NCBI GenBank assembly: GCA_965178125.1
Contig: OZ237761.1
Location: forward strand, 1 to 64,000
Direction of reading: 5' to 3'
Length of the DNA stretch: 64,000 nucleotides
From: Bilabrum cf. latius
Lineage: Eukaryota
Shown: positions 2,803-64,000 of the stretch, piece after piece
Layout: each line of letters begins with the position of its first letter
Position numbering within the stretch: position 1 is the first letter of the stretch
The notes under the pieces: model-generated
The model's input: only the letters and a program-made list of their open reading frames with translations
What the model was told of the DNA's origin: nothing
The model's database searches: none
Translations under genes and position numbers: made by a program

Positions 2803-5800
2803 ATGGCTAGCCCAAGTGTACAGCAGATTTGCCAGTGCAAGTATATAGTATTCATGGTTGCAATACTTAGTATGTGCGGCTCTCGAGGCGCAGTTCACCG
2901 AGTGGAGAAGTCAGCCTCAAGCGATTCTCGTATGACACGGGGTATGCCGAGCCAAAGGAGTCATTCAGCAAACAGAGCCGTAGTTGTACCAGATAAAAAC
3001 AAGGTGTGTGACGCGCTTCGGATCGCGCATCCTGATGACAGATATACGCTTCAGAGCCGCGCGAAGCAAGTTGGATTCGATGAAGTGCTGAACGTGTACT
3101 TGGGCCACTTTGACTTGAATAGTGGCCGGTCTTTCATTGATAAGAGTACTCTACTACAACAATGTTGCGAGCTGGCCGGGCGTCGAGGACTTGCCTCGCT
3201 CTCTGGTGCGAGGGCAGCATCGCAAGACGCGCAGAACTTCTTGCGCACGGCTGGGCTGATGACGTCTGAAATAGAGACCAAGTTGCTCCTCACCAATTCA
3301 AGAGGCAACATGACTCTGCAACGTCTCTTGGATCCGTTCCTCGCCGACCCTGGAGTCGCGCTGGAGGCCTGGAACAAGCAACCCAAAGAGGTGCTCGGCA
3401 AGCTTCGGATACTGCTGGGAGGCAGCGTCGAAGAGTTCGTGGTGGATCCAACTACTGGCTCCTACTACATTCAGGGCATGCAAGCCGGCGGGGGCTTCGT
3501 CAGGACTCGGCACACTTGCGGCGGGGTGCAGTGCTGCGAGCACAGCCTGGGCGTTGTCCTCTCACCCATGGATTCCCTGCACCTCTCCAGCCTGAGGGGA
3601 AGGTCGATCCGCAGGGCAATGCAAAGATCCATCCATGCATTGGCTGCAGCATCAAGTGGCAGTGTTTATGACACCGCCAGCCCGCAGGCCTCGATTTGGT
3701 ACGCGAGATTGCCCTCATCAGCCGAACCGGTAGCACGGGCGAGAAGCATCGCCGGCAAGCAGCTCGCTGCTCCAGTGGCGATTCAACCACTAGTTGCCGT
3801 ACGGGCCAGGCAATCAGCCTTTTCTGCGTCGCGTATTGCGCCTTACTTCGACCCCGGCAGGACTGTGTGCTTCGTGGGCTCTCTCGGGACGTACGATGGC
3901 ATTAGGAGCGGCTGGATCCAGGAGATGTCGAGGATTCGAGCCAGTGGGGGCAGGCTGAGGTACGTCAGCTATTCATCGGGGGGCGTGCATGAGCAGTTTC
4001 TTGCGGAGCTCAATGCTGTGGGTGCTGGCCAGCCCGAGCGGTGGTTGCCGGCCTCGCTGTCCTCTGGCTCGATGGAGTCGGGCCTGGGAGGCATCCGGCT
4101 GGCGCAGGCCAAGCTGCTTGCCTTGCAGGTCATCATGCGCATGCGGGGCGTGCCTAATGCTGTCTTGGGCAACCATGGGGGCATCAATTGGGATGTTGCT
4201 CGAGAAGCTCCAAAGTACCGGTCGAGCCATACACCTCTGGCGCGCGCGTGGGTGGCGATGGATGCCGCGCTGGCTGCAAGAGACACGCTGTGCAAGTCCT
4301 TTGTCAGCAAACAGTGGTCCCAACGAGCACATGACTTGTGGCTGAAGAAGCTCCCCGGGTACTTGAAGGTATATGATGGGTACTCCAACCCCACCGCCTG
4401 GATGCAGCTGGCCGACCTGAACTTGACGATGGAAGAGACAACGAAACTTGGGCTTGCGTGCGGGGCGAGCGAGTCTGTGCAAGGCATGTCGGTGAGCGAA
4501 TTGCAGCGCAGCAACCATCCTCTCAAGGATGCAAAACGGGTGCTTGAGTCCATAGAAGAGTCCTTTGTTGTCTTTGGGATCCCAGACGGCGCCGAGGTTG
4601 TGCGCTGGCTGGCCCGCTTCAGCGAGCTAAAAGTGGGTGGGATCATGGGGTGTGACATGATGACGATTGCTCTGGAGAGCGACATCACAGACGCACTGTT
4701 GCATGAGACCGCGCGTGTAGCAGGGACACGGGCGACCGTGCTTGAGAACTGTGGTGTGAACCGCAAGCACGACGCTCGACGGACTGCCGGATACAGCGTT
4801 GTCACGGGTCACTCCAGCCACGCAAGGGACGTCATGGCTGTGGATCTCATGGGGCACGGTTGGGCCGCCTGCAGGGAGAACTTCAACCTGGACTCGATGG
4901 ACGCCATGGACTGGACCTCTGCCCAGGTGAGGGGCGGTGGTGCTGCGGTGGTCCCGCATGGCTAGAAGCAGCCGCCACTCGACGCGGAACTCAGCGGAGT
5001 CATCCACGACCTGTTTGATTCCACCGATGTCAGGCACTCCGAGCGGACCCTCGTGGTGAAGGCCGAGGCGCCCCCCTGCTCCAGCCCTGCCAGCTCGCCC
5101 GCGTGCTCCGAGGAGCGATGCAGGAGCCTGCCCATGCCCACAGTCACGATGCACCTTGGAGCTGACCCGGATCGGTTCTAGCGCCACACTGCGCCTGCTG
5201 TTCGAACCAAGGGCACAGCCCCGCCCACGATAGGCTACCTTGGCAGGCTCGGTCCCGAGAAGGGCCTGGTGCTGGCAATGCGAGCGTGGGCCATTGCCAG
5301 CGGGGCACGGCCTTTCGACGGCACCGACGTTCGGTCCCTTGCCGACGCCACCGCGGCTGCCTGGTGCGGCAAGCCCGCCAGGAGGTCCCAATCCGGTGCT
5401 ACATTGCAGTCCAGCGTCCTTGTCCGGGTACAAACTTCCTCTAGCAGCCCCGTCGCGCACGGAATGGTGTCCTGCGCGAACATGCACGACCGGATGGGCC
5501 AGCAGAAGTGGCACGAGAGCAGGGCCATCGCAGTGGCATCGACTCTTTAGCTGTATCTAGACATCACCTCAGCACCAGGTGGTGAATCCGCCGCTGCACA
5601 GGAAGAAGTGAGCGGCATGGGCGTCATTGAAACTCGTCACCCGAATGGTGCTCGGTGTCGCCGCTCGGCACACGTTGCTCGCGCCCTGCAGTGGGCCTTC
5701 CCTGCCCTAAACGCCTGGACAGATTCTTCGGACTAGTGTGGCCTGGTGGTGGAGTTACCAGCCGCAGTGCCGCACGGCAGATTCAAGATTATCGGAAGCG

Positions 5801-6408
5801 GACTCATATTCGATGACCTGCAGCAACTCGCCAGGAGCCTGAATTGCTCTGATACAGTGCAGATGCTAGGCTCCGTGTTTGGTGACCAGCTAACCTCTGA
5901 GCTCTTCGAGATGAGCGCGATGATATTCCCGTCCCTGCGGGAGGAGTCCGAGACATTTGGAGTGAGTAACCTTGAGTCGCTGCTGACCGGCGTGCCATTC
6001 ATATCCATGGGGCTTGGTGGGTCCGTGGACTACACAATGCATGGGTATAACTCGCTCATCGTGCCCCAGGGGGATGCGCTGCCGATGGCCTTGCAGATGA
6101 TGGCTTTCATGAGGGGGCGCGCGGGCAGCCGGGAGGATCTCCGTGCCATGGCGAGGAGGCACGGGCACTCGAGCCAGGCCGTGGGGGAGAGGTTCGCTCG
6201 CCTTGGCGCCTGCTTGACGAGGTGTCCAAGGTTGAGTGAGGGGCTGGAAGACATGAATAGCGTGAGCGTTCGGATGGAGAGGCTCGCCCGGGATTTAGGC
6301 GAGTGGAGCTACGCTGCGGCTATGCGAGCCGGATCTGTCTCGGTGGCTTCTTTGCTGTGCGCGCAGGAGTGCGTGGCCAGCCATGGGTACCGACACGCAA
6401 AGGGCTAA
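2803..6408 (+). CDS. Glycosyltransferase family 4 (GT-B fold) protein with long N-terminal region, ~1201 aa with TAG=Gln
   Basis: One frame from ATG 2803 to TAA 6406-6408, with in-frame TAG at 4963, 5179, 5548 and 5734. GT4 motifs IGYLGRLGPEKG (~5230-5265), FKIIGSG and E-X7-E 'ETFGVSNLESLLTGVPFI' lie in the same frame but are separated by TAGs. N-terminal hydrophobic stretch YIVFMVAILSMCG suggests a signal anchor. Confidence 0.85.
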
Positions 6409-7276
6409 TGCTTCGTGTGTTCTTTAAATCGAAACAATACAGCGTTCGCACACGTTTCTTGGTTTCTTGCTCAAGTTGCGACCCTACAAATATTGAAGAT
6501 GAGGCGTCCACATTGCCGTCGCGGTTGAATCAGTACGAGAGCCGTGACCAGCTCACTTGTTTGAAATTGAATTTGCACTACAGTCTCAACAGGCTGTCCC
6601 AACTGCTGCAAGAGGTAAGGCCTGCTTCTTTCTGTATTCCGCTTTTCATGCTGCATTCCGCCATTGCTACCCTCTTCAATTCCTCTAACATTGGCATGTA
6701 GAGACGGGTGATCCGATCTATGATCCGGGTCACTCATCACCCCACACGCCCCATCTCAGCCTTCCCGGTCTATGCCTTTGCCTTTCAATCCAAAGAGTCG
6801 ACCAGATGACCCAACCAATCATCTTCTCCACTAAGCCTCCACCCACCTGGTGTACCATAGCCCCTCCCCACCCTGGCCGCCGCTCCTACTCGTACCTCGA
6901 CCGCTCACCCCTCCGATTTGCTGTGTAGCATCTGATCTGGCACCTCGAGCTGGTACTACACTCAACGAGCGACGTCAATTTCAGAGACCTAATTGGCCTC
7001 ACCAACGACGTGAAGGAGACTCATTTCACGAGCAGGTGCCATATGGCCTGAGGTTGCCCGCACAATCGATGCGGGCACCTTGGAATAAACCGACAAGGTT
7101 GCGCATAGTACCACTGCGGCTTTGGTCACATTCTAGGTCCTCATTCTCAGGTCTTCGTGACGTTGCGTTCGGCTAAACGGCGCCGCGCAAAACGGCGGTT
7201 CCGCAAAATAGTTTCGCCGGCTCACCAAACCGGTGCGAGGCGCCGCTAACGACTGCCTCTGCACGACGAAAAGCGA

Positions 7277-10245
7277 ATGAAGCAAAGCGGACGGAAACGA
7301 GCACCGTATACTTCCAATGCATGCTACGCTTGCCGAGCTGGCAAGGTAAGGCGGGCTACACGGAGGTACACTTTCCGCACCAACGCACTGTCTTTTCTAT
7401 CCATCTGACCGGTGAATTTGAACCGTTGAACTGCTTGCGGTCATTTTTCATCAACTATTCGTACATTCAAAGGTTACTGAGTCGGAAATTTGCGCCTTTA
7501 GGTCAGCTTGATGCCTTTGTGCATGTATTTTCCCGTGCGGCGCAGCGGAGATGTAGCGGCGCTCGTCCATGCGAAAGGTGTGCCAGGCTTGGGCGAGAAT
7601 GCGCATCAGGTGCTCCACTTGGTACGAAGCGTCCCCGAAAGACTGTGCGACAGCCCAATGCCGAACCAGAGGGATATGGACGGTCTCAACTGGCGGGCAC
7701 ATCTACTTCCAGTCGTCCTAGCGGTGGTTCTGATCGCTATTCGCGTGCAGACTCGGCCCAGTACAGCAATTCAAACAGTTTGCGTTCGCTTAATCATATG
7801 TCTGCGGAGAGTGACGGTACTCGGGCCGCCATTCTGAAGCGTCGCCGGATTGAAGCGGACTCGTCTGTACTTCTCGGGTTTGCCTCCGGCGTATAGCAAG
7901 CCTAGAGGCAAAGCATTGTTTCACCTGCTAGCATTGCAGGAGTTGATGCCCAGCGTGGGTCCGGCTCTGGCGGTAGTCATGTCGCTTTGCACTAGCAGCC
8001 GACCTCTGGCATCCAGCTCCAAGTCTCGCCAGCAACACACGCCCAATTTGCACGGATGCCCAATACCGGGCCCGTGTAGCCCGGTTTAAATATGGGAGGT
8101 ATGATGTTGTAGCATTAGGGTGGAATCTAGTCCACAGGTCAGGGTATCGCCGTTCTTTCTCCCGCAACAGCATCCCAACCCGCATTTGGGCCGCAGCGGC
8201 TCGCGCCATCTGTGGGCTATGCGGTCCCCCCCACTCAGCCAGCCCCCATGTACGTGTACATGCATTAGAACGGCCAGCTGCGAGCACCATCTGCCCCTCA
8301 GGTTGTCTATCAGGTGCCACAGCACCAACACCCCGGTGCCGGTGCCCAGCCACTGCAACCCATGCGTATATCAGAGGTATCGCAAGGCGCGCACTTGCTG
8401 GCTCACGGAGCAGGCGGCAGCAGGGCGGGGCCAGCTGCTGTTGGCATCAGACTCGATGCACTAGGGGGAGAGGGGGCTGCCCAGCCAGCGGATGTGCGCG
8501 CAGCTTTGTCCTATGGTACGCAGCCAGTTGCTTTTTCTTCGCCTGCAGGACAGGTGCAGCTTGGCGCCGCCTCAGGGGCGGGCTAGGGCCGTGTCGATGC
8601 CGGTGGATTTGTGCGAGAGAGGGCCCCGTTGGAGTAGAGGGTCACGGCTGGGGGACAGCGGCTCGCGGGGCCTGATGTTCCAGCGGTGGTGCCCTCCGCT
8701 ATCGCCAGCTCTGGCGCGTCACCCGTGGCCCGTGGGCCCAGCAGTCCGGCCCGGCTCGCAGCAGGCCGGGTCAGAGAGCAAGTGAGAGACTTCTGGCGGC
8801 GGGAGGGGGAGCGGCTCGGTCGGGAGCAGGGGTCTGGGCGGGGAGCGGGCAAAGAGAGCATCATCCGGGTGTTGCCTGGCGAGTGCAAGCGGCTGGCTGC
8901 CGCGGTGGGCAAGGTGCTCGAGTCGGACCAGGCGCTGGGGGCAAGGGGGGCAGCGGGGGCGGACGTGCTGCTGGAGGAGGACTAGTGGCTGGCTGGTCTG
9001 GACCTTGGCCAGGGTAAGGCAGCCTCGCAGCCATCTACTTCGGAGACCACTCTGGCTGGTGATCGCGCCGGAAGCACTATGTCGGCTGCATCACTTGGGG
9101 AGGGGGCCAGCGAGGGGGGGGCTGCGGCGGGGGAGCGGCATGGGGCAGATGGGGCAGCCAGTCGTCTGGCAGGGGATAGTGGAGATACCGAGGACGGCGA
9201 ATCGCCGATCGCTCGTCCGTCAAGAATGCGCGGGGGTGCGCCCGTAACCGGTGGCAGCCAGCGAGCCACCATGGTCATCTTGGAGAACGTGGCTCTCAAG
9301 CACCTACCCGTGCCCGCTGCCCGCATGGAGTTCACGTACGAGCCCAACAGGCCCTCGAGCCTGTACATTAACGACGCGGGGGCCGCAGTGCTGGGCTTTG
9401 GGTGCGAGGAGCTGTCCGGGTGCATCCGGCAGGGCTTCTTGCCGGTGGCCTACGATCCGTAGAGCTGGCTGGAGAGGGGCCGTGCGGTGCTGCCTGCGGT
9501 GCGGGACCGCCGCAGCTGGTTGGTCCACAGGTCCAAGATGCGGCGTGTGGTGAGAGGGGACGTGCAGCGGCCGTGGGAGGGCCTGCTGCTGCAGTACTTT
9601 GAGATGACAGAGACTCTGTACTTCGAATGGTTCGACAGTGATCAGTAGGAGGGGTAGTGTACAGGCTAGAAAACGGGCGGCAGTGGGCAAGCAGCCGGGG
9701 CCGAGCCTCGGAGCGGAGGTGGCTGCAACCGGTTCCGCGCTGCGATCAGTTACTTCAGTGATATCGTGGATCTGGACGAGACGCTGTGGATCTAGCCAAC
9801 GAAAGAGGCTTGGACTGGACGCGGGGGTGCAGGTCAAGCTATGGCCCCTTTCTCTTCGTCCTCATCGTCAGCAGCTTCGGGTGGCCGGCATCAGTACCAG
9901 TTCCCCTCTGGTGAGGCATGCGGCATGTACTACGTACGGCTGAACGAGGCGCATGGCCTTGGGCCCAAGCTGGAGGGGGTGCAGCGCACGGCAGGCGGGG
10001 AGCAAGTGGCTGTGGGGGCAGCCGGAGGTGAGGCGGCAACTGATGGGCCGTCCTCAAGCTCATCTGCTGGTGAGGCCACGCAGCTGACGCCTTCCGGAGG
10101 CATCGTCACGGTGGGCGCGAGCCCGCTGTTCCACCTCGTGTCACCCTACCACATGCTGGAAGCAATGGGAAGTGAAGCGCTTTCCTTGCCGGGCAGGTCT
10201 ATGGCGACTGGATCAACTATTACGAGTGGGGGCAAATAGCACTGA
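7277..10245 (+). CDS. Zn(II)2Cys6 (GAL4-type zinc cluster) transcription factor with PAS-like region, ~922 aa; exons 7277-7345 and 7546-10245
   Basis: Splicing GTAAGG(7346)...CGCAG(7545) assembles CYACRAGK|RRCSGARPCERCARLGREC, the C-x2-C-x6-C-x5-C-x2-C-x6-C pattern. Exon 2 stays open through 17 TAGs to TGA 10243-10245. PAS-like core LYINDAGAAVLGFGCEELSG at ~9360-9420. Confidence 0.85.
7346..7545 (+). other. Spliceosomal intron (200 nt, phase 0)
   Basis: GTAAGG donor, pyrimidine-rich tract and CAG acceptor. Removal restores correct zinc-cluster cysteine spacing. Confidence 0.88.
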
Positions 10246-10578
10246 CATGGCTAACATTGGCCTAAACAGTGGACTCCACTCCAGGTGTACATCATTCCTT
10301 CAGCCATGTGTCTTGATATGACTAACTTCAACACGATTCCATGATATGTTCCCACCGCTTTGATTGATGACGACTCTGAACACCATATCAAGCTATACAG
10401 TCTACTACATCGTGCATGCCATGCTTGCCGCTTCTGATGCATGCACGCATGCTTCTCGACCTACCCCACTCATCACACCAGAGCTGCAATAGATCGATCC
10501 CTGAAAATTAAATACGAATCAGTCTGAACCAAACAATACTTGTTATAGCACGCGTTTTATTGCAAGTTAATTGTCGGA

Positions 10579-11409
10579 ATGCGCACCATTTCTTTTGATG
10601 GAGCCTGTAACGGAGCTATTGCGGCTGGCGTAGTGGCTGGTGCGTGGCTGTACCTCGGATTGAACGGAAGGCAGTTTTTACTTCAAAGTGGGGTCTCTCC
10701 GCAGTCTGCGAGTGGAATGAAAGCAGTTTCAAATCTACTTGATGCCACTTCCAACGAGGCGGAACCGGAAGCCAGCAACGCAAAGGAGGCCCAAGCTTCG
10801 GAGGTGTCAGCACCATCACTGGCAAGTGCAGCGCTGGCCGTGCTCACTACTTTGTCGACTGGAGCTTACCGCATGACACCATCGCTATTTGATGCGATAG
10901 TTCCTGCATCGTCACTGCGTGTCCAAGCCATGCTTCGGTCTGGCTCGCAAGGCGTGAAAGTGTCCAGCGATGTGTGCGAAGCTGGCATTGCATACCTCGA
11001 GAATGTTGCTGACGTTGCCCTTGAATCGAGCAGGAGTTCTTATCAAAGGATGTCAATTGATCTTGGGATGATCCAGAAAGGAAGGCTTCACCCTTCGCAC
11101 CTGCGGGCCAACGCGATGGACCACTTCTGTCAGGGACTGGAGGAGGACGTGACAGATCCTTCCTACGAGATAAGGGATTGGCTTCAATCTGAGGCCTGCA
11201 AAGGTGTGTGCCACCCAGAAGTATGTGCACGACTTGCTAGGATTGGAGCGCTGCGACCAGTGATGCGAATTCCTTCAGACCAAGTGGCATGCATGCTCGC
11301 AAAGTTCAGGCAGTCACTGCTTGCTACTGCTATCCCGCACTTCCACAAAACAGTCAAGGCTCCGGCAGCATCCGAGCCGGAGCGTTCACGGATCGTACAA
11401 AACTGGTGA
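10579..11409 (+). CDS. Hypothetical protein, 276 aa, N-terminal hydrophobic segment
   Basis: ATG-to-TGA ORF filling the space between AT-richer flanks. GAIAAGVVAGAWLYLGL is a candidate TM helix. No family recognised and no internal TAG. Confidence 0.6.
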   Translation: MRTISFDGACNGAIAAGVVAGAWLYLGLNGRQFLLQSGVSPQSASGMKAVSNLLDATSNEAEPEASNAKEAQASEVSAPSLASAALAVLTTLSTGAYRMTPSLFDAIVPASSLRVQAMLRSGSQGVKVSSDVCEAGIAYLENVADVALESSRSSYQRMSIDLGMIQKGRLHPSHLRANAMDHFCQGLEEDVTDPSYEIRDWLQSEACKGVCHPEVCARLARIGALRPVMRIPSDQVACMLAKFRQSLLATAIPHFHKTVKAPAASEPERSRIVQNW

Positions 11410-13901: not shown

Positions 13902-14271
13902 GGCTTTGATCCAACAGCAAAAATGTCGGCAGCGCAATCTGCTCCATCTTGCAATGTTCGGAGCCGGTAGCAGAGCTAATACTGTCCTCAGTTCACTCGC
14001 AAAGCATGTGTCATGGCAGCCGCGTCGATAGTTTCTCAAATTACGACAGAATGTACTGGCAGTACGGCTCTGTGGAACGTGCAGAGATGAGTGTAGTGTC
14101 AACTTCTGCAGACCGTCCGACGCAGTCCGGAATTCATAATTGAGCTTGCCGAACGTTGGGGGACACTGCAGCAAGGCAGGAACAGCAGCACCAATACTGT
14201 TTTGCAGTCTAATGCGCATTCCATAATAATCGTTTGGACTCTGGATTGGCCGGCTCAGTGACGAATTCCGC

Positions 14272-16548
14272 ATGCAGTCGGAACGGTAGGTATCGCAAGC
14301 TGAACGGAGCTCACAGGCTGCCCGGTCGGCCATGGCCGGCTGGAGCGGAACCCCTTGGGAAGATGCAATGCCTGGTATATCATCGGGGATTGGTACTGAT
14401 TCTGCAGATCGACCAGTTCGCTCTGCAGGCCACATTGCGGTAGCTGGTCTGGTTGCTGAGCCAGCGTTGGTATCAAGCCACACTCGCGGGCAAGGGAGCG
14501 ATGGATTGCCAGAGTCAAGGGCTCACGCTGCGCACGGAAACATATACATAGGTGCAGTGGGTTCAGAAGCTGCGGACGAGAACATAAGGGGTTCCATGGC
14601 CCTGTCAGCCGGCCTGGCAACTGCGCTGCTGTCCGGCCACACAAACGATGCCTCTGCCACGGCGCCTGCCCACGCTCGGCAGCCGGGCAGACCGCGCCCT
14701 CTCGCCCCCCTCGCGTCCATGGATTCGTCGGAGAGAAGGGTGTCCAGGCGGGCGCCAGCACTGGCCCAGGCTGTGTCGCCCTCACTCTAGTACTCGTCCT
14801 AGTTGCGAGACGCACGCAGCCCAACCGTCGGCGCCCGCTCGAACGGGAGCCCGCGCACTCGTCACACGCGGAGGGGCTCTGCCTCCGGATCCCCACTCGG
14901 TGGCAGGGACCACCGTCGACGAGTCAGAACGCACTCATCACACCGTGCCGACCTCGCGACGGCCATGGGTTCCCCGCTACGGCCCGCTGCGGCCGCAGCC
15001 GGGATGGGGTCCCCTTCTCTGCACTCGTCACACGGATCTCCCCGCTCCAGCGCCCTGTGGAGCGTCCGTTCCTCCCTCCGCTCCTCGGCACGGCCCGGCC
15101 CCCTGCCCCGCGCGCCCGTCAAAGTGCTAGATGCCCCCGGGCTGCTGGACGACTTCTACCTGCAGCTGCTGGACTGGGGCCGGGGGGAGGACGCTGTGGC
15201 GGCCGCGCTGGGCTCCGTGGTGTACCTGTGGAAGGCCCGAGGCGCCTCTGTGCAGGAGCTGTGCGACGCAGGAGAGGGCAAGTCAGTGTGCGCGCTGCGG
15301 TGGAGGCCGTCGGGTGCATCGCACGGCGGTGCGGGCGGGAGCAGCCGGCTCGCGGTCGGCCTCAGCGACGGGCAGGTGCAGCTGTGGGACCCTGAGAGGG
15401 GCCGACAGATCCGTTCACTTGGGGGCCACAAGGGCCGCGTGGCCTCCATCGACTGGGCGGCCGAATCCGCGGGGCACGGGCTGCTTGCCACGGGGGGCGC
15501 GGACGGGAGGGTGCTCCTGCGGGACGCCCGCTCCCCGCGATCCGCTGAGGCCGCGCTGTCGGGGCACCGTCACGAGGTGTGCGGCCTGCGATGGAGCCCT
15601 GACAGCCGGATGCTGGTATCGGGCGGAAATGACCACACCGCGGTGGTGTGGGCACCTGCTGGCACCAGAGGGTCTTCATCTTCATCTTCATCTTTATCGT
15701 CCGACGCGCCGGCTACCCCCGGCGCGGGCCTGTGGCCGGGCTAGCGCGGGCACAGCGACGACCCCCCCGAGTCGGACTCCACGGGTGGATTGGGATCTGG
15801 CTCCGGGTTCAAGCAGAGGGCGGGCAGAGGGCCGGGTGCTCGGCGTGGCAAGGGCTCTGCGGCCATCTTGCACCGCATTGCAGTGCACAAGGGCGCGGTG
15901 AAGGCGCTCTCGTGGCACCCCAGCGAGGCCGGCGTGCTTGCTACGGGGGGTGGGGCCGCCGACCGGTGCTTGCGGATCTGGGACGTGCGCGGCGCCGCCC
16001 CTTGTTCCTTGGCCCGAGTGGACACCGGTTCGCAGGTGTGCAACGTGGGCTGGGCCCCTTCTGGGCGCGAGCTGTGCACCACTCACGGGTACTCAAGCCA
16101 CGAGGTAGGCGTCTGGGGCTGGAAGGGGGGCTCGGGTGCAGCGCACGGTGGTGCGAGGCGGCTGGTGCGCACCGCGCGCCTCAAGGGGCACACGGCGCGG
16201 GTGCTGTTCCTTGCGCTGGCCCCCGATGGACAGACGGTTGTAACCGGCGCAGCGGACGAGACGTTGAGGTTTTGGCGGGTGTTTCAGCCCTCGGGCGGCC
16301 TGCGAGCGGGGGCGGCCAGCCAGGGGTCGCCCATGCCGCCGCCCAGCCCGGCGCACGGAAAGGGCGTGGTGCTTGCACCCGCAGCTGCGATCCATCGGAG
16401 CTCTGTGGCGGCGGCGGCTGCGTCTGGGAGGCAGGGAGCGGGGGCCGATTTGGCGACCGAGGTGCACGCAGGCGGCGCGCGAGTGGGCGCTGGGGACGGC
16501 GGGCTGCTGGCATCCTCCACGCCGGGATTGACGGCGACGTTGCGGTGA
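14272..16548 (+). CDS. FZR1: APC/C co-activator of the Cdc20/Fizzy family, most like Cdh1/Fizzy-related; WD40 protein, ~758 aa (alternative start 14332)
   Basis: Motifs PVKVLDAPGLLDDFYLQLLDW, GHRHEVCGLRWSPD, HKGAVKALSWHP, VDTGSQVCNVGW and GHTARVLFLALAPDGQTVVTGAADETLRFW, plus a terminal LR resembling the IR tail. The two halves of the propeller are in one frame joined through TAG 15742. Other TAGs at 14287, 14788 and 14800; stop is TGA. The family is secure, the Cdh1 versus Cdc20 assignment less so. Confidence 0.9.
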
Positions 16549-16717
16549 CTGCGAGTAACAGTGCAGCATAGGATCGTATGCACTGCTGCAAATGAAGCCT
16601 GGCACAGTATTCTCAACTCCACCTTGGGAGCCGCCAACCTTCGACTCGGAGCGGTTTAGGTGACGGCGTCTTCCGCGAATACAACTTTTGCGACACTGCG
16701 ACAAGCCTACGTTCTTC

Positions 16718-44336: not shown

Positions 44337-44551
44337 TTGGTAGCCTCGAATCATCGGGGTCGTGCTTCTCATCGTTGGCAGCGCATGGTCTCTCTAGGCC
44401 CAGCTCACCAACACACTGTGCAGGTGGCCTTGTAGGCTGCATGCGACCATTCAAGTTGAGTCCATCCGGGGATAGATGATGAAGATAGATCCGACAGCGG
44501 CGAATAGTTTGGCGCGTCATACAGTATCCACGCGGATACTTCCACCTTAGA

Positions 44552-49583: not shown

Positions 49584-49756
49584 GGATCCGGAGGATATGG
49601 TTCTGGAAGATGGAGACGACTAAATGACTGCCATGTACGTCCATGTGAACTCATTACGTAACTTACTATCAACTCTGCAGAGGAGAGACTCCATTTTATC
49701 TTGCTGCAGCCTGTCAACATGGGTGGGTCGGTCCACACAGATGCATTACTAAGCTC

Positions 49757-51910: not shown

Positions 51911-52068
51911 CACGCGCTAAATCAGGCCGAATAGTTGGATTCTATCCCTTTATCTATTTGGCTCCGGATGTGAGGTACTGGGGTTAGTAACGTGCGAGTC
52001 AAACAAAATCGGAATTTCTCACATCTTGCCAAACTGCAACAGTTGCACTTACCTTCGCACCTAGGGCT

Positions 52069-53835
52069 ATGAAGACTGTTGTTCCTTTGCTTGCCTCGAT
52101 ACTAGCAGCGAGTGCGCTGGGATCACCGGAAGAATTATTGAGAGATGCGGTTTTGCAGTCTCTGGGAGCAGGCTTTGCACGTATGTCTCATCGGCAAGAG
52201 AGTCTTGGCGCTTCCGTCGGCCATGTCTTGGCAGAGATGCACAGCCGTCTATCTGGCTAGTTTGGATCCAGTGGACGTCGGGCGTCTGGGAGTCCTCCAC
52301 CGGGTGGCAATGGGACTGCCCTGCTGCCTGACGGGTACTACAGGATTATTCCTACCTTTGAAGGCGGCGCCACTCTACCTGGCAAGCCAGCGGTGGCTCG
52401 GAACGGCGCCAGCCCAGTCGTATCTTACGAGTCGAGGTGTTTTGCCTCGAACGAGGCGAAGGTTTCATCTGTCTCAGACGGCGCGATCGACTTGCAGATC
52501 ACCGGCACCGGCCCGGCCAAGGGGGCCGGCCTGCTGACCCCTTGCACTGAGCTGTACCTCATCGTGCACCCAGGGGACCTGCAGTTCGCCACCATCAAGA
52601 CGGACGGATCAAAGCAGAGCGAGTCCACGACTGTGAAGATGTCCTATAACATCACGGCGCTGCCAGAGGGCACGCAGGAGTGGCTCGGCCACAGCGGCGT
52701 GCGCGTGATGCGGTTCCTTTACGAGCCCCTGGACCTGATCGGAGACCTGGCCGATACTCTGAGCCTGTACATCCCTGCCCTGGCCGAGCCCACCCTGGAC
52801 GCCGCCAGCGCCGAGAGGAACCTCGAGCTGCTGCACGACTACTGCGGGGGGGTGCAGATGCCCCCCCGGAGCAAAATCGTCACGGGGATCCCAGAGGAGG
52901 AGATCAAGTCGGGCACGCTCCTGGCCATCAACCGCCTGGACGGGCTGGGCACGCTGGAGGACTGGGCCACAGGTGCCCGCACCACCCACATCGCCACCAT
53001 GATGTGGCTCGGGTCGGGCGCTGACAGGGCACTCCACGTGGTGGAGAGCACCGACACGGAGAGCTACTGGCCCAACCCGAACATCCAGAGTACCCTGCTC
53101 AAGGAGTGGATCCCCCTAGCCGTGGCTGCCAACTACTCAGTGGCGCTGCTGCCCCTCAAGCCAGAGCTGCAGGCCAAGTTCGACGCCGGAATCGAGGCGG
53201 CCGAGAACTTCATCTCGGGGTCTCTGGGCGAAAAGTACGGCTACAGGTCATTTGTGGCGACTTTCTACGATGTTCCCGTGGGATCACTTCCGTGGCCCGC
53301 CACATGGCAGGCGGTGGAATCGATCTTCCAGCTGATCGGGCTGGTGGCGCCCTCGATCCCCGAGCTCATCATGAACGAGGGTCTCAACAAGAGGCTCAAC
53401 TCCACGGGACTGGGCATGGTGGCCGCGGCGAATTTGGCCAACCAGAGGAACGTGAGCTGGGGCGAGCTGCTGGCTATGCCGGAGCAGGATTCGTGGGTGT
53501 ACTCGGACGGGCCAGCGAGGGTGTGTGACGTCTACTCGTGCTCCATCTACAAGGCCGCCGGCCTCTTCGGTGACCTGACCGACAAGATCCAGTGCGGCGA
53601 GTTTTAGAACAGGGACGTGTACTCGCTGGATTTCTACGACGTAGCCAGCGAAGACGGGCTGCATGACCCGCGCCCCGCGGCGTGCAAGGAGGCGGACCCG
53701 ACGCTCCCCTACTGCATGCTCATTGGCACGAGGCAGATCGAGCTGAACGGGGTGAACTCGGTGGCGCCGTACGCCGGGATGAACGAGAGGTGCGCTTCCA
53801 CCCCGCCACACTACACACGTGCAGAGGGGTGCTGA
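52069..53835 (+). CDS. Secreted protein, ~588 aa, probable permuted papain-like (NlpC/P60 superfamily, YiiX/YebB-like) domain
   Basis: Signal peptide MKTVVPLLASILAASALG. One frame through TAG 52258 and 53605 to TGA. His-before-Cys motif order IKSGTLLAINRLDG...TTHIA...LHVVES...GEKYG...PEQDSWVYSDGPARVCDVY..IYKAAGLF. Confidence 0.72.
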
Positions 53836-54161
53836 TTTTATGGAATTTGTTTTGCGAGTGCTTAGAGCCAGGCCCCGGTGAGCTTTGTGAACGTTGTGAC
53901 GTGACGCACGCGCATCGGTGCAACGCTTGAGGATGCGACTGGTGCAAGCCTTGCGAACCTACTTGCATGGTTACGGTTTACATTTGTTTGCTTGTACGAC
54001 CAGAATATAGAGACTCTCTCTACGGCAGTGGCTTCAAGTTGTTGTGAAGGAATCATACTCATCACGATCCGCTGGCATCCAGCGGTGTAGTCTACACTGG
54101 CACTAGCGCAACCTGAAGCTACTTGTCCTAAATCCCAAAGGCAAACAGTCTGTGTACCTGT

Positions 54162-57100
54162 ATGAAGCGAAAGCGTGAGGCAGGCGCCAAAGGGGCCGGA
54201 CCAGATTCGAGCGACCCAACGAAGCAACCCAAGGCTGCTAGAAAAAGCACAGTCTCGGCCTGTCTAGCTTGCAAAAGAGCCAAGCGTTCTTGCTGGGCTG
54301 AGAGACCATGTCCCCGATGTGTAAAGCGCGGGATTCCGTGTGTCGAGGTGTTGGACCGCAGGAGCAAAGCCTTTCGTAAAATAAAGTCTGCTGTGAGCGG
54401 GTAGGCGTCATCCTCCATCGTGGTGTCCGTGCACGGGAAGTCCGATAGAACTACTGTGTTCAAGAAAAACCTATCAAAAGGTGCGCGCGAGTCTCTGAAT
54501 GCGGCGTCCAGTGACAGCGCAGACCACGCCCCATCGGATCCCACTACGTCAGAAGACAGCACAGAGTTCAGGCCCAGTACGTTGTTGGATACATAGGAGA
54601 AAACAGTTCGCTGCGATCAGACAGTGAATGATCGGAAATGCAGTAGACCATCTGGCATTGCTGGCCCGCACCAAGCTGCTGCCAGTAGAGGGATACTCCG
54701 TTCTCGTACAGCTAGCCTACCTGCCGCTGGCATGTAGTCTTCCTCCTCTGTATCGTACGCGGAGCAGCAGCTGAGGATCCGTCAGTTAATGGCGCTTGGA
54801 CCCCCGCTATCCATGTCCCAGCCGATGCTGACGATGCAGATCGACAGCAGGGGCGGTCTCCTAATGACGGTGCGGCAGGACCCCACGCACCCAGGTCTGC
54901 AAGCTTTGCTTGGCCAGGACTACAACCGCACCGTTTTCGTGCCACCGGCCATCGAGTCGGCTGCGAACGGGGTGTTGCTGCCGGATGGCGCTCGGCCTGT
55001 GCTACCCCCCCAAGCGCTCCAGCTGCAGAGTGCCTACCAGATTCAGGCGCACGACGCCTACATGTTCGACCAGCTGAGCCGGTCCCCCATCCCAGTGATG
55101 CGGCAAACCTACAATATGCTCACTCTGCAGCCGATGCAGCTATTCATGAACGCAGCAACTCTCGGCATGGTGTGCGGGGAGGAGGAGGTGGCGGTGGCGT
55201 ACATGGGCACGTCTGACTAGCTGATGGAGATGGACCCAATCAGCGCCGTGCTGTAGTCCACCAGCCAGTTGGGAGCTATCATCGGCAGGCGAAGGACGTT
55301 CACGCTGCCTGGTCAGATGTGCAGGCATTTCTTCGTGTCTGAGAAGGCAAAGCAGGAGGCCATGGAGTTTGTCGGATTGGTGGAGGAACAGGGCGAATCC
55401 TACACCAGTGCGGCACGCAAAGCGGTTGCAATCGTCGGTGAGAGACTCGCGCAGGCTCAGGCTCAGCACCACACATCTGCTGGTGCATCGAAGGCGAGCA
55501 GCGGCTTTGGCTCGGCATCGGGCGGAATGGCGGGGGGTGCACGAGCGAGAGCAGGATCAGGATCCTCGTCAACTGGGACGGATACATAGAGCAGCCTGAG
55601 CGGAGAAGGGGAGGCCACCCATTAGCAGGCAGGGGAGGAGGAGGAGCCGCTCTTCGACTTCTTGACGGAGCGCGTGGCCTCGGTGCTCTTCTACGTCGAG
55701 CATGAGATTACTGCCGACTGGGTAGGCACTGCCCCCCGGGCGTTGTGCGGACAGCTCAAGAACTGGGAGAGTCTCCCGAGTAAAGAGGAGCATCTCGGGG
55801 AGTTCCGTGGCCTTGCTGACCAACGGATCCAAGGGCCTTACCTGCCATGGTGCTGGGCCGCCGCAGAAACCATTGAAGCGAAGCAGAAGGAGGAGCCTTT
55901 CCGGCCGTGGTCGACCCGACCGACAAAGTTACCAACTAGACGTTTGGATGGATCTGTCTAGCCCCTTGCTTCTGGGACAGGGCATCCCCCAGTCCCGCAT
56001 CCAGCAGCGCAGAGTGGCGATGCAGCGACGCCACCTTCTAGCCGTGACGTGACGCACGGCCAGCACTTGAGCCACCCTTCCTCTGGACAGGAGTCGTCGG
56101 GTGCATCGGTCCCTATTGATGGCGTACAGTCAAGTAACCCTTCGTCATCATCCGGAAAAGGATCCTCTGGCGCATCAGCGGCCACCGACCAAGACAACAT
56201 CGCCGACGATGCGTCCAGCTTGCCACGCGGCAGGGCTTCCGCGATGCATGCCACCTCGACCAGCAGCCGACCTGGAAGTGCTGCGTCTGGAGTATTGCAA
56301 GCCGGCAGTTCCACCACAGCTCATCAAGGTCCAGGCCACGATTGGATGCAGACTCCGGCCAGTGGAAGCCCCAGCGCCGGATCTGCTGGTAGCAGCTTGC
56401 ACATGCCAGCAGGGGAGGGCAACGACCGCGCCGGGCGATTCGCCCTAGGCAGCCCTTAGAGCTTGGCGCTTGGCTCCTTGGGAACCGGCTCAGTACTCGA
56501 TGATGGTGCCGGCAAAGGCGCCGGCAATGACGATGCGTCCTCTCTTGCATCACATGGGATGCAGCCCATGATGCTCGGCTCTCCCTCTGCTGGTTTCGAT
56601 GCTGGCGCCGGCGAGTCGAAGCAGTCCCGATCGTGGGGTGGATTCGAGCCGGGTGAGGTGGCACTCACCCGTCCCATTTCAGCAGCAGACACACACAGGA
56701 TGGACCCGCCGAGGGGAAGCACAAAGACATACGTGGAGGCGCCGTCCTTGGGCCTGCCATATTCGGGGTCATAGCGATTCCTGAGTCCGGGGTAGGCAAG
56801 TGGTCAGCAGGCCATGATCGAGGAGGGGATGCCGGGTGCACACGGTGCAGGTGCTAGCAGTGGTGGATCGGCGTATGGAACCGGCGCTGGAGTAGGTGTC
56901 TCGTCATCGTCAAGCAGTGCAATGATTGGTGCTGGCAGCAGCAGCAGCAGCAGCAGCAGCTCTCATGCAGCTGCAGCTGGTGCAGGCCACGGCATGAGCA
57001 CACTGCAGCCCATGCCTATGGTGCACCGCTTCGGCGGCGTCAGGCGCTCCGATGATCCAGGCCACGGTACGGCTGCAGGTCAGATTTGGGATCTGGACGA

Positions 57101-57578
57101 GATCAGCGAGGTGTCCGGCTCAGTCATGTCCAGCTTGCCGCCCTCCAAGCGTGCCCGGACGGAGCGGGGCGGCGCCGGTGGCACAGGCAGAGCGGTGCCG
57201 CGGATGGATGGTGAAGATGGATTCGGATCACCTCTCGGGGAGGCATCAGGCACTGGGTCGTATGCGTACGTATGGCCTGAAGCGTCTGATTCCCCAACTC
57301 ATCACGAATTGCGCCAGGATGCCGCGGGTGGTGCAGCGCACCTGTCTCCTGCCGACCGTGCCAGACTCCGGTGGATCCCGCGTGAGCTACTCGCGGTGCT
57401 GGACCCAGTGGACGTGCAGATGCTGAAGAGGAAGGTCGTTCTGCAATCGGAGCTGCAAGCATGGCACTTCGATTTCCGCAGGAGGCTGCAGATGCCGGGG
57501 AGCAGGCTGGGTGAGGAGCTGACGAGGTTGATCCTGAGTGCCTCGAGCGGGGATGCGAGGATAGTTGGACCATCGTAA
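54162..57578 (+). CDS. Zn(II)2Cys6 zinc-cluster transcription factor, ~1,138 aa
   Basis: ACLACKRAKRSCWAERPCPRCVKRGIPC near the N-terminus. The frame continues through 11 TAGs to TAA 57576-57578, with Ser/Gly/Ala low-complexity regions. Confidence 0.85.
56935..56960 (+). repeat. (AGC)n microsatellite encoding poly-Ser within the second zinc-cluster gene
   Basis: gcagcagcagcagcagcagcagcagc read as AGC Ser codons. Confidence 0.8.
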
Positions 57579-58479
57579 GTTACATAAATGATCGTCATTG
57601 CATGTACAATACGCTGTGCATTACCGTCCGCAGGGCATGATGTCTGTGACGACGCCTACGAGGTGACACGGCTCTATGGGTAACTGTCTATTTCTGAATC
57701 AAGTCGACATGCAGTGACAAGCAAAAACATTCTTGGATCTGTAAAGAGCAGATCTAAGCCCAAGAGCTGAATCATACTATTAATGACCAAATTTGATCCG
57801 GATGCTAGCCATCGGATTGCGACGACTACGTGGGATCTTGCCTCGTTAAGAGCACCCAGGGATCCTGGATCCTGGATACATGCCAGGGTATACGCGCAAC
57901 CTAGTCTCTAAATCAATCAGACATGGCAAGACCTGACGAAGCTGTGCATGTGCGCGACCCTTGACCAGATTGACCGGGCTAGGAAGAGCACGGGCACCAC
58001 ACCGCCGAGGAGGAGGGGGTCGGGAGGGTGGGCAACAAAATACCCAATCTCCGCACCTCTCCTAGAGAGGATATGCGCGTCATCGCAAAGCAATCCGTTG
58101 TCATTGGTCGCATCTTCCGATTGCGACCCCCAGCGGAACCCACGTGACGTCCCAGCGCTTTCACCCTGACATCCACTCCGAACCGCATTCGGCGATAGGA
58201 TCCAGACACCAACTCAAAAGATGAAAGCGATCAAAAGCTGTAGCATTAAAAACACATGCTGAGTAGAATGGCAAGACGTAGGAGCCTCTACTTGACTCCG
58301 ATTCCGACTATTACTACTCAACTGGCGCCCACCCGGGTGGCACCACATTGCACACCACTGGCGTCCATCGCACACTCAGCTGGCACGTGACCCCCATATC
58401 ACGGCTGGCATCCCACCAGCACTTCCGCTAACGGATATTGATCCGTTTCCCACGGACCGTACTATGCTCACAGTGTTGA

Positions 58480-61400
58480 TCAGAGTGGCACCTTCTTCTG
58501 GAGGATGACGTGTACCCCACTTGCAGCCTTCTTGCCGTGGAACAGAGGCATAACCTCAGACGGGCTGAGCGAGGCCGCGCCCATCCCTTCTTCCGCCCCC
58601 CCTCTCTCTTCAAAGGCCTTGTAGAGTGCCTTAATGTCTCCCAACGAGCAAGCAACAGCATGCCTCACGTCCTCGTTCATCAACCCAGAGTCCTACATAA
58701 GGTCTAAAACGGCCAATTCGGTGGTAAGCGTGACGACAGAGCGGCGTGATTCCTGCCACTTCTTGGGCGGGTGCGTTACGGAATCCGCATGGGCGGCTTC
58801 GACTGTGGTGGATCGATCTAGCACGAACTCAAACCCAATCTCGGGGGACTCTGAGCTTGTGCTTGCTACCACCACCAGGGGGTGGGACTGCAGCCTTGTG
58901 CGCCTGTCGATTCCCCCCTCTTCGCTGGGGTCCTTGTTCGGAAGGTACCGCTTCATGAACTCAGAGAGTGACTCGGCATCTGTAAGACCTGTGACTGCAC
59001 TGATGAGAGTGGCTGGGCCCGCAGTGCTCATCTCGCCATCCATTGTCTGGATTAGGTAGGGAGACGTACGGAAGGCTAGAGCCATTGCAACCAGGTCACC
59101 AATCCGGGCAGATGGCGTGGCCAGAGCGTGCGAGAGACTTGCACTAATGCCGTCATGCAGGTCCTATCTCGTGCCCTCCATGTTGCCAGTAGAGGCCAGA
59201 CTGAGTTCCAGGATATAGAGCTTGAGTGCATCAACCGTCCTGTTTATGGGGTGGCGGAGCTTGCCATTCCCACTGGAAGCCCGCGCGCCTCTAAGGGTCC
59301 GACCCCTGTTTGCCCGCATGCCAGTCCTACCGTGCTGCAGCTGCAGGAGCAAGGGCTCATTGGTATCGATCACATCCTTGTCGATCGTAGAGTCAACACT
59401 TGAGGAGAGATCATTGCCCTCGTGCAGTGGTGGCAGATTGCTGTTCTTGGCTTCGCTGCGAGGCTTGGTCTCCACGCGCCCTCGTGCCTGAAGGCTGCGC
59501 TGACCAGCGGCATCGAGCGCTTTCGTGTCGAAGTGTGGCCCGGCGCTGGACAACCACTCGTTGAATTGGCCATCGTCAAAAGCAGCCTTCAATTGTTCGT
59601 CGAGCAGCTTGAGGTCGGTCTCTCCCATAACCACGTGCGCGAGGCGGGTCAGCGCCCTCACGTTAGAGATCATGCCGTTTTCCTTGGCATCCGAAATAAG
59701 CTTGGTCAAGTGCCTTACTGCATGCACCAGGCCAGCAAAAGCTGCTTGCTGAGGCCGCATGGAAATCTTGGAGCTCGTGCTTGATTCCTCGATGGAATCA
59801 GTTTGCTGGCTTTGCTAAGCCTGAACTTCGTCTGCGGGGACGCCGATCCACTTCGGCATGCATTTGTCCCAAAACTAAGAAGCCACACCCGTTTCGATAC
59901 GGATCGTTCGCACTGCAATCGACCGGAGGATTGCGGCCGCCTTCCGCGTTAGTTGCTCCTGCTTCTCTAGAGCCAGTGATGCGAGCTCCAAGGCGACGTC
60001 TGGCTTGTCAGTGAACTTGGCGGCGCCGTTGCCTGCCATCGTAATAGCCGTCTGGAACGCAGCCTTCCTCAGCTGATTAAGATCCACCTCCGGATCCGGC
60101 TTGTCGTTGAACGTTGGGAAGCAAACGCGGTCGCCCAGTTTCCAGAGGTCTTCCAATGCGATATTGCGGGCTTCCTCGGCTGCGAACGCGAGGGGCCTCG
60201 TCATGCCAGCGTTCCCGGCCGTTTGGAGGTCGGAGCGAACACGTCCTGTCTACACGTCAGACACGTAAGGTGTGGCGCCCTGTAGCGCAAGGAAGGCAGC
60301 CATCCCGCGGTAGAAGCTGTAGCTGTCGCGGGAGCTACCGTCGAGCTCACCAGCTAGCCAGAACTCCTTGTCCAGCACTCGCTTCACTGCATCCCGCAAA
60401 GTAGCGTCGGGGTCGATGTTGTCGAATAGCACTGGCCGAGCCTGCACCTTCGACTCGCAAAACTGGCCAGCATAGCCCTGCTCGCACTCGCAGACAGCGC
60501 GAAGCTTGCCGAGAGCTGAAGATGCCTCTGCCACGTCTAGTGGAAGGGTTGCGGCGTCGCGGAAGATGCACTGTCCGTGGCCTGAGCAGTACTCGATGGC
60601 ATCGTCGGGTCCACTCTCTCCGCACCATCCAGCCGTAAGGCGACTCGCGCCATGCATGGCTGCTTCCACATCTCGCAGTGTCGCTCTTGGAACCGAGTAG
60701 TCCTTGGTGACGTGTAAGAATGATGTCAGCGCGTCACTGCCTGTGCGCACTTCAATGAGACCATCTTCCTGCCCACTTTTAGGTTCATAAGCTCTATTCG
60801 TTTCTGAGTGCGAGCCACTTTCGAACATGTTGGCCTTCTTGGCTGCACTGGGGCTCTTGAGCGCAATGGAGTATACGCGCTTGCCACCCTTATTCACTCG
60901 GTAGTAATAGTCCTCCAACGGTTTGTTTAGACTGTCCAGCTCTTCGGGAGTCAAAGGGGCGCGGTAGCTCTTTATTGACACATCAGAGACCGGCGGACCA
61001 CTTGCGTGCAGTGCGACCAATGCCTGCGAAAACGCAGCGTAGTTCTCCTTGTCCGGCCGGAGGCGCTTGTCCTTGCTACGTGTTACTGCTCGACTAAATC
61101 CGACGGGCGCGAACACCTGGGTCTCCCCCTGGATACCCATGTAGTAGTCATCATTGAGGCAAACGGCTTTCGAGGAGAACTCAAAGCTCTTCTCTTCCCA
61201 CACCTTCAGCTGGAGCAAACCGTTTACGACGGACACCGCCTGCGCTCGGCTGTATGCTCGCTGGCTGGGGCTGAAGGACTTGACGGGGCCAGAGACAGAA
61301 GTATCCCTCATCTCGGGCTGGCTCTGGAATAGGTGCAGGTCGCTGCGACCCTTCTGGGCGATGCCAGCGTACGCGCTCTTGGCCCAGGCATCGTGCTACA

Positions 61401-64000
61401 TGCCAACTAGATCCATCGCTTCGGTCTCTGGGTGCATGTAGACCTCCGTCCGCTCCATGCCGTCAAACAGCAGGCCCAAGACCCAGCGCTCTAAGTTGCT
61501 GTTGCCATTGTCCAGATTCAGGTGCTTGATCAGCTTCATGGAGATGCCCTGCGCCCCATACACTGGAATGTCACCACCGATTAAACCAGTGATTGCGGGT
61601 CTGAGGCCCTACGCCTGGCCACCGCCTCCCTGAATCGACCCCTTGCCCAGATCCCTCAGAGCCACACCGAGCTCGGTTGATTTCGTGTGATCAGCAGCTG
61701 TCATTCGGCCCTCTTTGGAAACTTGTATGGTGCCCAGACGGATATCGCTCGTCAACTCAGAGTGGGACAGCTGGTCGGATCTGGGTACATGGAGTGTCTT
61801 GGAAGCAGCTCGCATCGCGTTTGAGGTTCCTTCTAGTCTTGCACCAAAGCCGATACCTCGGGGGCCGGTGCTCGAGCGCTCCTCCCAGGCATGCTACTCG
61901 AGGGCCTTCACCGAAATGTCAAGCCTAGGGTCGTTGTCTCGGAACGCGATGAAATCCACCACCCGATCATGCGCTGTGCTGCCTTTGCCAGACATGTCGG
62001 CGATTGAGGCCTCAAGGGTTGCAGGGATAGAATGCAGTCCAGAGCCCGGAGCAATGAGTCCAAGGATTCCGGTGTCTCCGAACCTGCTCTTTTGCTCGAA
62101 TTTCCCGTTCTCCAGCGGCGTGCCAGAATACATGCTTGGCCACAAGTGTAACGCCTCACGGTCTTCCTCCTTCGGCGGAGCAGCATGGCACCGAAGTTTC
62201 ACCATGGCAGCATCGATCAGTCGTAGCGCCTGCCCCAAGGGACCACTAGCGATCGGGTGTTCGTCATCCTCCGACCCCTCTACGAGCGGGGAGCCTTTTG
62301 AAACGGGCCGAGTGTCCAAGTCCTTCTCCAAGTATCGGATCAGTCCAACGAGGCCAGCTCTCTGCGTCTCATGCATGACACACTGCCGGTACACAACATC
62401 GTCCAACATGCGCCACAGTCGATATCCCAAGGCATCAGTCAGTTTTTGCTCAATGGTCGCTTTCGAGATGACGTCGATGATGGCAGAAATGAGACTGATG
62501 ACGTTCTTGACCATGTCCACCAGCCCCTGCATGATTGCAATCGCATCCCCTACAATCGGCGCCGCTACGACTGCCGTGCCGACGGCAGCACTGATGTCTG
62601 CAGCCAAGGCGGAGATCTGTGAGATCATCTGCTGAACGGCGACAATTCCGGCTTCTGGACAAGCAGTGACGACGTGGTAGACGGCTTGCTGTGCCATGGC
62701 TCTAGCCATAGGCCCTACGGCATGGACGACAGGCATGATAGCCGGCTCCAGAATGTTCTTTTGCACAGACTTCAGAACGTCCTTTGTCACATCCTTGGCT
62801 GCCTTCTTGACTTCTTTCTCGATCGCTTCTTTGATTTCCTTCTTCACCTTGTTAACGACGGGTTCGACCCCTTTCTTCACAGATGTAGTCGCTGCCTTGA
62901 TGGCGCTGTACGTCTTGGTGACGGAGGCGATCTGGCTATCCACCATCAGCTTTGCTCTCGTCAGTTCATCGGCACCATCGCTGTAGGCGCCGTCCCTTTT
63001 CTCCCAAAACTGCAGGTGCTGCGACATCCGGACCAGGTCAGCATTGTCATTCCCCTTCTGAAACATGGCTTCGCCAGCGCTGCGGAGAGTCTCCGCTCCA
63101 AACTCACGGATTGCCTCTGCATCGCTCTCAGAGAGGCTTCCCTGTGCTTCGCTGGACAGAGCGGACTCGACCGATGACTCTGACGGTGACAAAACACTTA
63201 GCTGCTGCTGCAGATGGTTCAAACTGGCTGAAGCAGCCGCCGGCTTGCAGTACTTGAGCACGTCGAAACTAGGGATGGATCGCCCACTCTCAAAGAACAA
63301 AGGCAGAAGGTTGACACGATCGGGCACCCACTTCTTCAAGCTTTCGGTCTCTTTGAAGCCGTCGTCAAATAGCTCCTCCCACTGGACCTCGAACAGTTTT
63401 TGGACATTCAAATTCCCGAGGTCCAGCTGTCTGCGGAAAGGGCTCGTGTGGTCCACCGGCTTCGTTTTCTTCTCATACTCGTTCGTCGCTAGATCGCCGC
63501 ACCAGTCCACGTATGCCTGCGAGAGCCTCGTCACGGGAGCGTTCAAGACACCGCCACTCTCTGCCTCCTCGAGCAATGCCTCAGCAAAACCGGCTCGGCT
63601 GAACTCCGGGTACGAGAATTGCGCGTCTTCTGCCATCAGCTGGATTCCCGCGAAGAGGTTCGTGACCATGTCGATGGTGATTGCGAACTAGTTCACCGTG
63701 TATGTCTCAACACCCGTCCAGAACTTCTTGCCCTTCGCGACCACGTCATGGATGGCACGCTTCGTCCATGAGCCTTTGCCTGTGGCCTCCCAGCCCTCCA
63801 CCTCGATACTTGGGGTTCGAAGCTTGTCGTAGCTCCCCCCCACGTAGAAGTCGAGCTCGCGCTTGTCGTCCTCGAAGTAAGATATCCTCTTGCTTTCGCG
63901 AAACTCGCCGTGTCCTTCGAAAATCTTGCGTAGCTTCTTGGTCGCACCAGTGCTGAGCAGGATTGGATTGGTCTCGATGTGCCGAACGGCCAGCCTCGCC
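58480..64000 (-). CDS. Large protein of unknown function (>1,839 aa, 5' end outside window) with an EGF-like domain
   Basis: Seven track ORFs share one minus frame joined by 9 TAGs. The frame is open to the window edge and ends at TGA 58480-58482. EGF-like CSGHGQC...CECEQGYAGQFCE at ~60450-60590; Ala/Val/Ile-rich hydrophobic segment at ~62470-62640. Confidence 0.8.

Follow-up and report, generated by a model that had tools for sequence, protein, structure and literature searches.

Changes to nuclear genetic codes whereby UAG alone is reassigned, uncoupled from UAA, were unknown until 2017 and can still be counted on two hands (PMC5304391, PMC11687900). UAG has been described as a glutamine codon in Iotanema spirale, in Protocruzia and in two phyllopharyngean lineages, and as a codon for other residues in the rhizarian exLh (leucine) and in Scotinosphaera (serine) (PMC11687900, PMC5304391). 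Here we analysed positions 1–64,000 of the forward strand of contig OZ237761.1 (assembly GCA_965178125.1, Bilabrum cf. latius), a stretch of 64,000 nucleotides called the window in what follows. An original prediction, made from the letters of this DNA alone, had proposed that UAG is translated there and throughout the genome. Our results indicate that UAG is very probably a glutamine sense codon in this nuclear genome, with UGA as the main and UAA as a minor stop codon, the pattern of NCBI translation table 15.

Iotanema spirale, a member of the Fornicata, has the same codon table (UAG for glutamine, UAA and UGA as stops) and is likewise not a ciliate. However, it is an anaerobic gut flagellate known from its transcriptome (PMC5304391). 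Nothing found here links the window to fornicates, and the window organism has telomeres of the TTAGGG type, about 60% guanine plus cytosine (GC), Zn2Cys6 factors, a full-size PDR transporter and relatives in metagenomes. Protocruzia tuzeti and the two phyllopharyngean lineages also use the table 15 code, on similar proof, namely UAG at positions of conserved glutamine (PMC11687900). The window differs from these ciliates by its telomere (ACCCTA repeated 380 times) and its GC content, 0.53–0.68. In exLh and Scotinosphaera UAG alone is reassigned and UAA remains a stop, as in the window, but the amino acid differs, the window strongly favouring glutamine (PMC5304391, PMC11687900). Ulvophytes and Amoeboaphelidium protococcarum provide further examples of stop-to-glutamine changes outside the ciliates, and the presumed route is alike, a C-to-T change in the anticodon of a tRNA-Gln together with an altered eRF1; in contrast to the window, where no internal TAA accompanies 131 TAG and two frames end with TAA, they use TAA for glutamine too (PMC2984419, PMC5304391, PMC6299283).

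Thirteen long frames on both strands, delimited with TAG taken as a sense codon, comprise 18,054 codons. A script counted in them the 131 TAG, without a single internal TAA or TGA. Shifted by +1 and +2, these stretches (36,108 codons) contain 297 TAG, 122 TAA and 621 TGA. Off frame, TAA and TGA thus total 743, or about 2.1% per codon, and if the DNA were non-coding about 370 of them would be expected in frame, where none was observed. TAG is about as frequent in frame (7.3 per 1000 codons) as off frame (8.2) and is therefore not avoided. These counts agree with the original prediction, which had reported no in-frame TAA or TGA and about 129 TAGs; we count 129 from the gene starts that it used and 131 over the thirteen frames. 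Every long gene of the window has TAG within it. The gene-by-gene numbers of the prediction were also reproduced (Table 1), including those of the proteins it named ‘papain-like’ (2) and ‘EGF’ (9).

TAA behaves differently from TAG. The frames contain per 1000 codons 29.6 CAG and 9.2 CAA, 39.4 GAG and 13.6 GAA, and synonymous NNG:NNA pairs stand at about 3:1. With this ratio, the absence of internal TAA from the 18,054 codons of the window and from 2,873 codons of a relative described below, against 156 TAG, indicates that TAA is no regular sense codon; the code is thus distinct from the UAR-to-glutamine code of ulvophytes and of the aphelid. Internal TGA is likewise absent from both sets. Eleven frames of the window end with TGA and two with TAA, and adding the relative gives 13 TGA and 2 TAA for 15 gene ends, a gene truly ending in TAG being one that frames delimited in this way would fail to recognize. 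Where homologues fix the C-terminus (an ABCG transporter, a PDCD2L-like protein and a secreted protein of an unnamed family), the end is always at TGA.

The reading of UAG as a sense codon is supported by a relative with the same pattern, by spliced contigs that keep their TAGs and by alignment with conserved glutamines. In three unrelated protein families TAG is aligned with an invariant or near-invariant glutamine. The exons of the ABCG gene, assembled at the RNA joints given below, encode 1,551 residues without any other stop, and this protein was aligned with 120 homologues. Its TAG at residue 190, in the Q-loop of the first nucleotide-binding domain (NBD1), faces Q in 117 of them, and that at residue 1549 in 82. 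At residue 502, R (74) is more frequent than Q (23); the remaining TAG columns are variable (four) or fall in gaps (four). For PDCD2L, an exhaustive homologue search followed by alignment of 155 domains places the TAG at residue 604 on the conserved glutamine of the PDCD2_C motif: 142 domains have Q and none has E or L, a column that does not fit glutamate. In the unnamed secreted family, the TAG at residue 514 faces Q in the four closest relatives (52–77% identity). This family is tiny, with 11 homologues in 5.8 billion proteins.

The alignable families have 15 TAG columns, and a simple likelihood calculation was applied to the nine of them that were usable. Glutamine obtains a log-likelihood of −18.4 and is 11.7 nats ahead of the next-best residue, threonine (−30.1); leucine is absent from the best eight residues. 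TAGs also occur within glutamine-rich runs.

Eight public sequencing runs from four studies match positions 45272–53835, and four runs were aligned to 44001–64000. The DNA run X1, the probable source, is contiguous, of even depth, and reads through the introns of ABCG. In X5 and X7, which belong to two further studies, contigs show GT..AG joints at 44930>45017, 45252>45344 and 46411>46509, and a further one at 46267>46370 is present in X7 alone. These splice joints, which are what identifies X5 and X7 as RNA, no run with this region being on record as RNA, show that the contigs derive from spliced mRNA, and they confirm four of the five introns claimed by the original prediction, all four lying in ABCG. 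The Q-loop TAG lies in exon 2, with a spliced intron on either side, and is kept in the contigs of both runs. Overall, of the 40 TAG codons of 44001–64000, 26 lie in pieces of X5 or X7 listed with zero differences. One of the findings named in advance as speaking against translation of UAG, transcripts with TAGs spliced out or edited to CAG, is contradicted by these contigs. In both runs depth differs from gene to gene, and the X5 pieces 49662–51921 and 52048–54015 have transcript-like ends. The X5 contig over 52069–53835 has a depth of 139, far above its neighbours, contig depth being a poor measure of expression. TAGs of the window recur in contigs of runs from four studies. Two listed differences fall on TAG codons, both in the TF2 gene and both a first-base T>C found in run X5, so that TAG stands against CAG between strains or alleles.

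A scan of metagenomes yielded the diverged relative, contig L002 (8,835 bp, GC 0.62), whose 2,873 codons include 25 TAG and no TAA or TGA. It carries an ortholog of PDCD2L with 2 TAG and one of MIOS (2,267 codons) with 23 TAG, both ending with TGA. Over MIOS, 1008 of 1944 aligned residues (52%) are identical between the two organisms. At ortholog sites with at least 11 identical neighbours, TAG faces TAG three times, CAG twice, and CAA and TTG once each; pairings with CTA, GCA, CCA and GAT are added where the surroundings are less conserved. The conserved glutamine of PDCD2_C (50099–50101) is encoded by TAG in the relative too, and a poly-Q run of the relative likewise includes TAGs. Since some TAG positions are common to both organisms, the code change predates their split. 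Most TAGs are not common to the two, which, from the sequences compared, would fit free C/T turnover at glutamine codons under an old and fixed reassignment.

The relatives also bear out the earlier warning that standard-code annotation would be wrong here. The public protein matches P0241 and P0242 of PDCD2L are pieces of one ortholog, and P0241 stops a single residue short of the TAG common to both organisms, so it was cut there by a gene caller using the standard code. The order of the genes differs as well: MIOS and PDCD2L are separated by ABCG in the window (44337–49757), whereas L002 has them tail to tail at a distance of 208 bp, and ABCG is missing from the interval; ABCG was therefore gained or lost at this spot.

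Several points weigh against reading UAG as glutamine. A tRNA scan of the window found none, and Rfam at gathering thresholds gave no match in it; any decoding tRNA, eRF1 and the other chromosomes lie outside the 64 kb analysed. Accordingly, translation of UAG is supported for the window and for 8.8 kb of the relative, and the ‘genome-wide’ of the original prediction goes beyond the evidence. X5 is labelled ‘RNA? (probably DNA)’ in the run listing, and the RNA evidence consists of assembled contigs, in which rare variants and edited forms drop out. Only nine of the 15 TAG columns could be used, and four of these nine are variable with Q rare (residue 722 mostly D, 994 T, 1222 A and 1235 K). 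The solved fungal PDR transporters Cdr1 and Pdr5 have E at the NBD1 Q-loop, where only the second-domain alignment shows Q; this site is degenerate in the fungal PDR subfamily. Residue 514 of the unnamed family faces T in five distant homologues, and two ortholog sites pair TAG with leucine codons, TTG and CTA.

These points can be set against other explanations. UAA and UAG could both encode glutamine (NCBI table 6), with UGA the sole stop and TAA merely rare because of GC-richness. Codes of this type occur in oxymonads, hexamitids and many ciliates. They are also described in ulvophyte green algae and the aphelid Amoeboaphelidium (PMC2984419, PMC5304391, PMC6299283), and ulvophytes use TAG more than TAA (PMC2984419). 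Such a code would agree with the 13 of 15 genes that end with TGA, and the two TAA-ended frames could read on to a TGA, GT4 after 40 more codons and TF2 after 64. We nevertheless judge it improbable. About 40 internal TAA would be expected in the window from the NNG:NNA ratio, none is found there or in the relative, and the TAA of TF2 is followed three codons downstream by a second TAA, which looks like a tandem stop. Moreover, of 12 stops only two have TGTAA, the poly(A) signal of green algae, in the following 400 nt (AATAAA follows none). A slightly less probable alternative is that UAG specifies another residue, be it leucine as in exLh, glutamate, serine or a non-standard amino acid such as pyrrolysine. 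The two sites facing TTG or CTA, the glutamate of the fungal PDR structures and the columns consisting mostly of T, D, A or K could be quoted for it; yet over the nine columns no residue comes closer to glutamine than 11.7 nats, the PDCD2_C column is without E or L, both strain variants on TAG codons are TAG/CAG, and TAGs sit in glutamine-rich runs. An exLh-type leucine code in particular was rejected, leucine being outside the best eight residues and only two ortholog sites facing leucine codons.

UAG might also be ambiguous, encoding glutamine inside genes and acting as a stop near some 3′ ends, as in Condylostoma, karyorelicts and Blastocrithidia. The way the frames were delimited leaves room for this, a TAG-ended gene being unrecognizable and gene ends numbering only 15, but the C-termini fixed by homologues are at TGA, and the ABCG TAG located three codons before the stop is read through, its homologues continuing past the site. 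We hold this to be very unlikely. Finally, that there is no code change at all, the TAGs being sequencing errors, lesions of pseudogenes or codons removed or edited before translation, is scarcely credible. We found no point in its favour: the same TAGs appear in the contigs of four studies, spliced contigs retain them with zero differences, the complete lack of internal TAA and TGA in 18,054 codons excludes decay, and TAG positions are kept in a relative at 52% amino-acid identity.

For UAG as a glutamine codon, a mechanism can be proposed by analogy with other lineages in which stops became glutamine codons (PMC5304391, PMC2984419). A tRNA-Gln with anticodon CUA, derived from tRNA-Gln(CUG), would decode UAG. 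Recognition of the third-position G of UAG by eRF1 would have been lost with UAA and UGA kept, and nonsense-mediated decay would presumably no longer treat UAG as premature. In Iotanema, a T32G change of eRF1 has been reported (PMC5304391).

Regarding the nature of the organism, the original prediction had remarked that a GC-rich genome with TTAGGG telomeres and zinc-cluster proteins does not resemble that of a ciliate. The telomere, the GC content (0.53–0.68 in 4-kb segments) and one Zn_clus domain were indeed found. In ciliates the macronuclear telomeres belong to the C4A2 or C4A4 type and the genomes are mostly AT-rich, so that the telomere array and the base composition of the window argue against a ciliate. 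That few stops are followed by TGTAA speaks weakly against a core green alga. In the Cdh1 tree the branch of the query is very long (4.5 changes per column) and its position lacks support. In the ABCG tree it belongs to a fully supported clade of 14 rows with metagenome proteins, a group separate from plants and green algae, oomycetes and Corallochytrium. Among named proteins, the best matches show only 35–50% identity and are taxonomically mixed, and the sole named member of the secreted family, a hypothetical protein of Salpingoeca rosetta, is 46% identical over 28% of the query, too thin for placement.

The UAG-to-glutamine code itself is thus already known, and it is the lineage that may be new. 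In the full-text literature, covered without most subscription journals and supplements, no description was found of a GC-rich eukaryote with TTAGGG telomeres in which UAG is glutamine. It is about as likely as not that the change arose independently in a clade for which no code change has been described, GC-rich, environmental and with TTAGGG telomeres. In that reading the change would be old and fixed, because at least two members that diverged deeply (52% identity in MIOS) have TAG positions in common, and the clade's standard-code gene calls would be fragmented at TAG. Nuclear code changes are rare, and a further case outside the ciliates would be a data point on the evolution of eRF1 and tRNA-Gln; for the present one a chromosome-scale assembly is available, as are transcript data and relatives from the environment. 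In practice, annotation of this genome and of its metagenome relatives with the standard code truncates or splits most long genes.

The features of the window are collected in Table 1. Pfam bears out the names given earlier to the GT4, Cdh1, PNP_UDP_1 (MTAP-like), ABCG and PDCD2_C proteins, to a MIOS-type zinc ribbon and to one Zn_clus protein. It gives no match for the ‘papain-like’ and ‘EGF’ proteins, TF1 or the giant open reading frame, whose names are thus unconfirmed.

Table 1. Features of the window (positions on OZ237761.1; TAG counts are in-frame codons)
Feature	Position	Strand	TAG	Stop	Remarks
Telomere, ACCCTA x380 (TTAGGG type)	1–2281				repeat scan; marks a chromosome end
Subtelomeric 54-bp repeat	2280–2485				3.9 copies
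GT4 glycosyltransferase frame	2617–6408	+	4 (after ATG)	TAA	Pfam Glycos_transf_1, E 1.3e-13; ATG at 2803
TF1	7177–10245	+	17	TGA	Gln-rich; Cys-rich N-terminal motif; no Pfam match
Frame with TAG as sense	10528–11409	+
Cdh1/Fizzy-related APC activator	14230–16548	+	4	TGA	WD40_CDC20-Fz, E 2e-87
PNP_UDP_1 (MTAP-like) phosphorylase	16664–18016	+	1	TGA	TAG within domain match
Giant intronless frame	18304–36906	+	52		6,200 codons; no TAA/TGA; no Pfam family
MIOS-like protein	37197–44336	+	12		Pfam, C-terminal zinc_ribbon_16
ABCG/PDR transporter, full-size	44552–49583	+	11	TGA	1,551 residues; ABC_tran/ABC2_membrane
ABCG exons	44552–44930, 45017–45252, 45344–46267, 46370–46411, 46509–49583	+			RNA joints
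ABCG TAG at NBD1 Q-loop position	45205–45207	+			exon 2
ABCG TAG near C-terminus	49572–49574	+			3 codons before TGA stop
PDCD2L-like protein	49757–51910 (frame to 51949)	-	6 (from first Met)	TGA	717 residues; PDCD2_C
TAG in PDCD2_C motif	50099–50101	-
Secreted protein, unnamed family (‘papain-like’)	52069–53835 (frame from 51991)	+	2		transcript-shaped contigs cover the gene
Unnamed-family TAG	53605–53607	+
TF2, Zn2Cys6 protein	54132–57578	+	11	TAA	Pfam Zn_clus
Two TF2 TAG codons variable between runs	55218–55220, 55254–55256	+
Large frame running off the window (‘EGF’)	58480–63999	-	9	TGA	at least 1,839 codons; no Pfam match

The GT4 frame, from stop to stop, contains six TAG, two of which are upstream of the ATG at 2803. 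One of the four TAG of Cdh1 falls in an insert that separates the WD40 propeller into its two halves. The giant frame encodes a protein rich in Ala, Gly and Ser; a TAG-free part of 737 residues gave no usable match when compared with the protein atlas. A tandem duplication with a unit of about 440–457 bp (13028–13187/13465–13624, 99% identical; 13200–13445/13657–13902, 97%) sits in an AT-richer stretch of 11.4–14.2 kb, in which no long TAG-only frame is listed.

In TF2, differences between runs are dense over 54300–57350, where X1 contains two forms, each at about half depth (21.7 of 44.3), which points to a pair of alleles or strains in the material sampled. A 1-base insertion is listed behind 55004. 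A jump of 175 bases at 55893–56069 is common to X1, X5 and X7 contigs; the ends of this segment are AG..TT, so it is no intron, and its length is not a multiple of three. An indel within TF2, or a repeat collapsed there, may explain it. Lastly, one X1 contig links 57553 to 64000 on opposite strands, perhaps owing to an inverted repeat or to a join made in assembly where the window ends.

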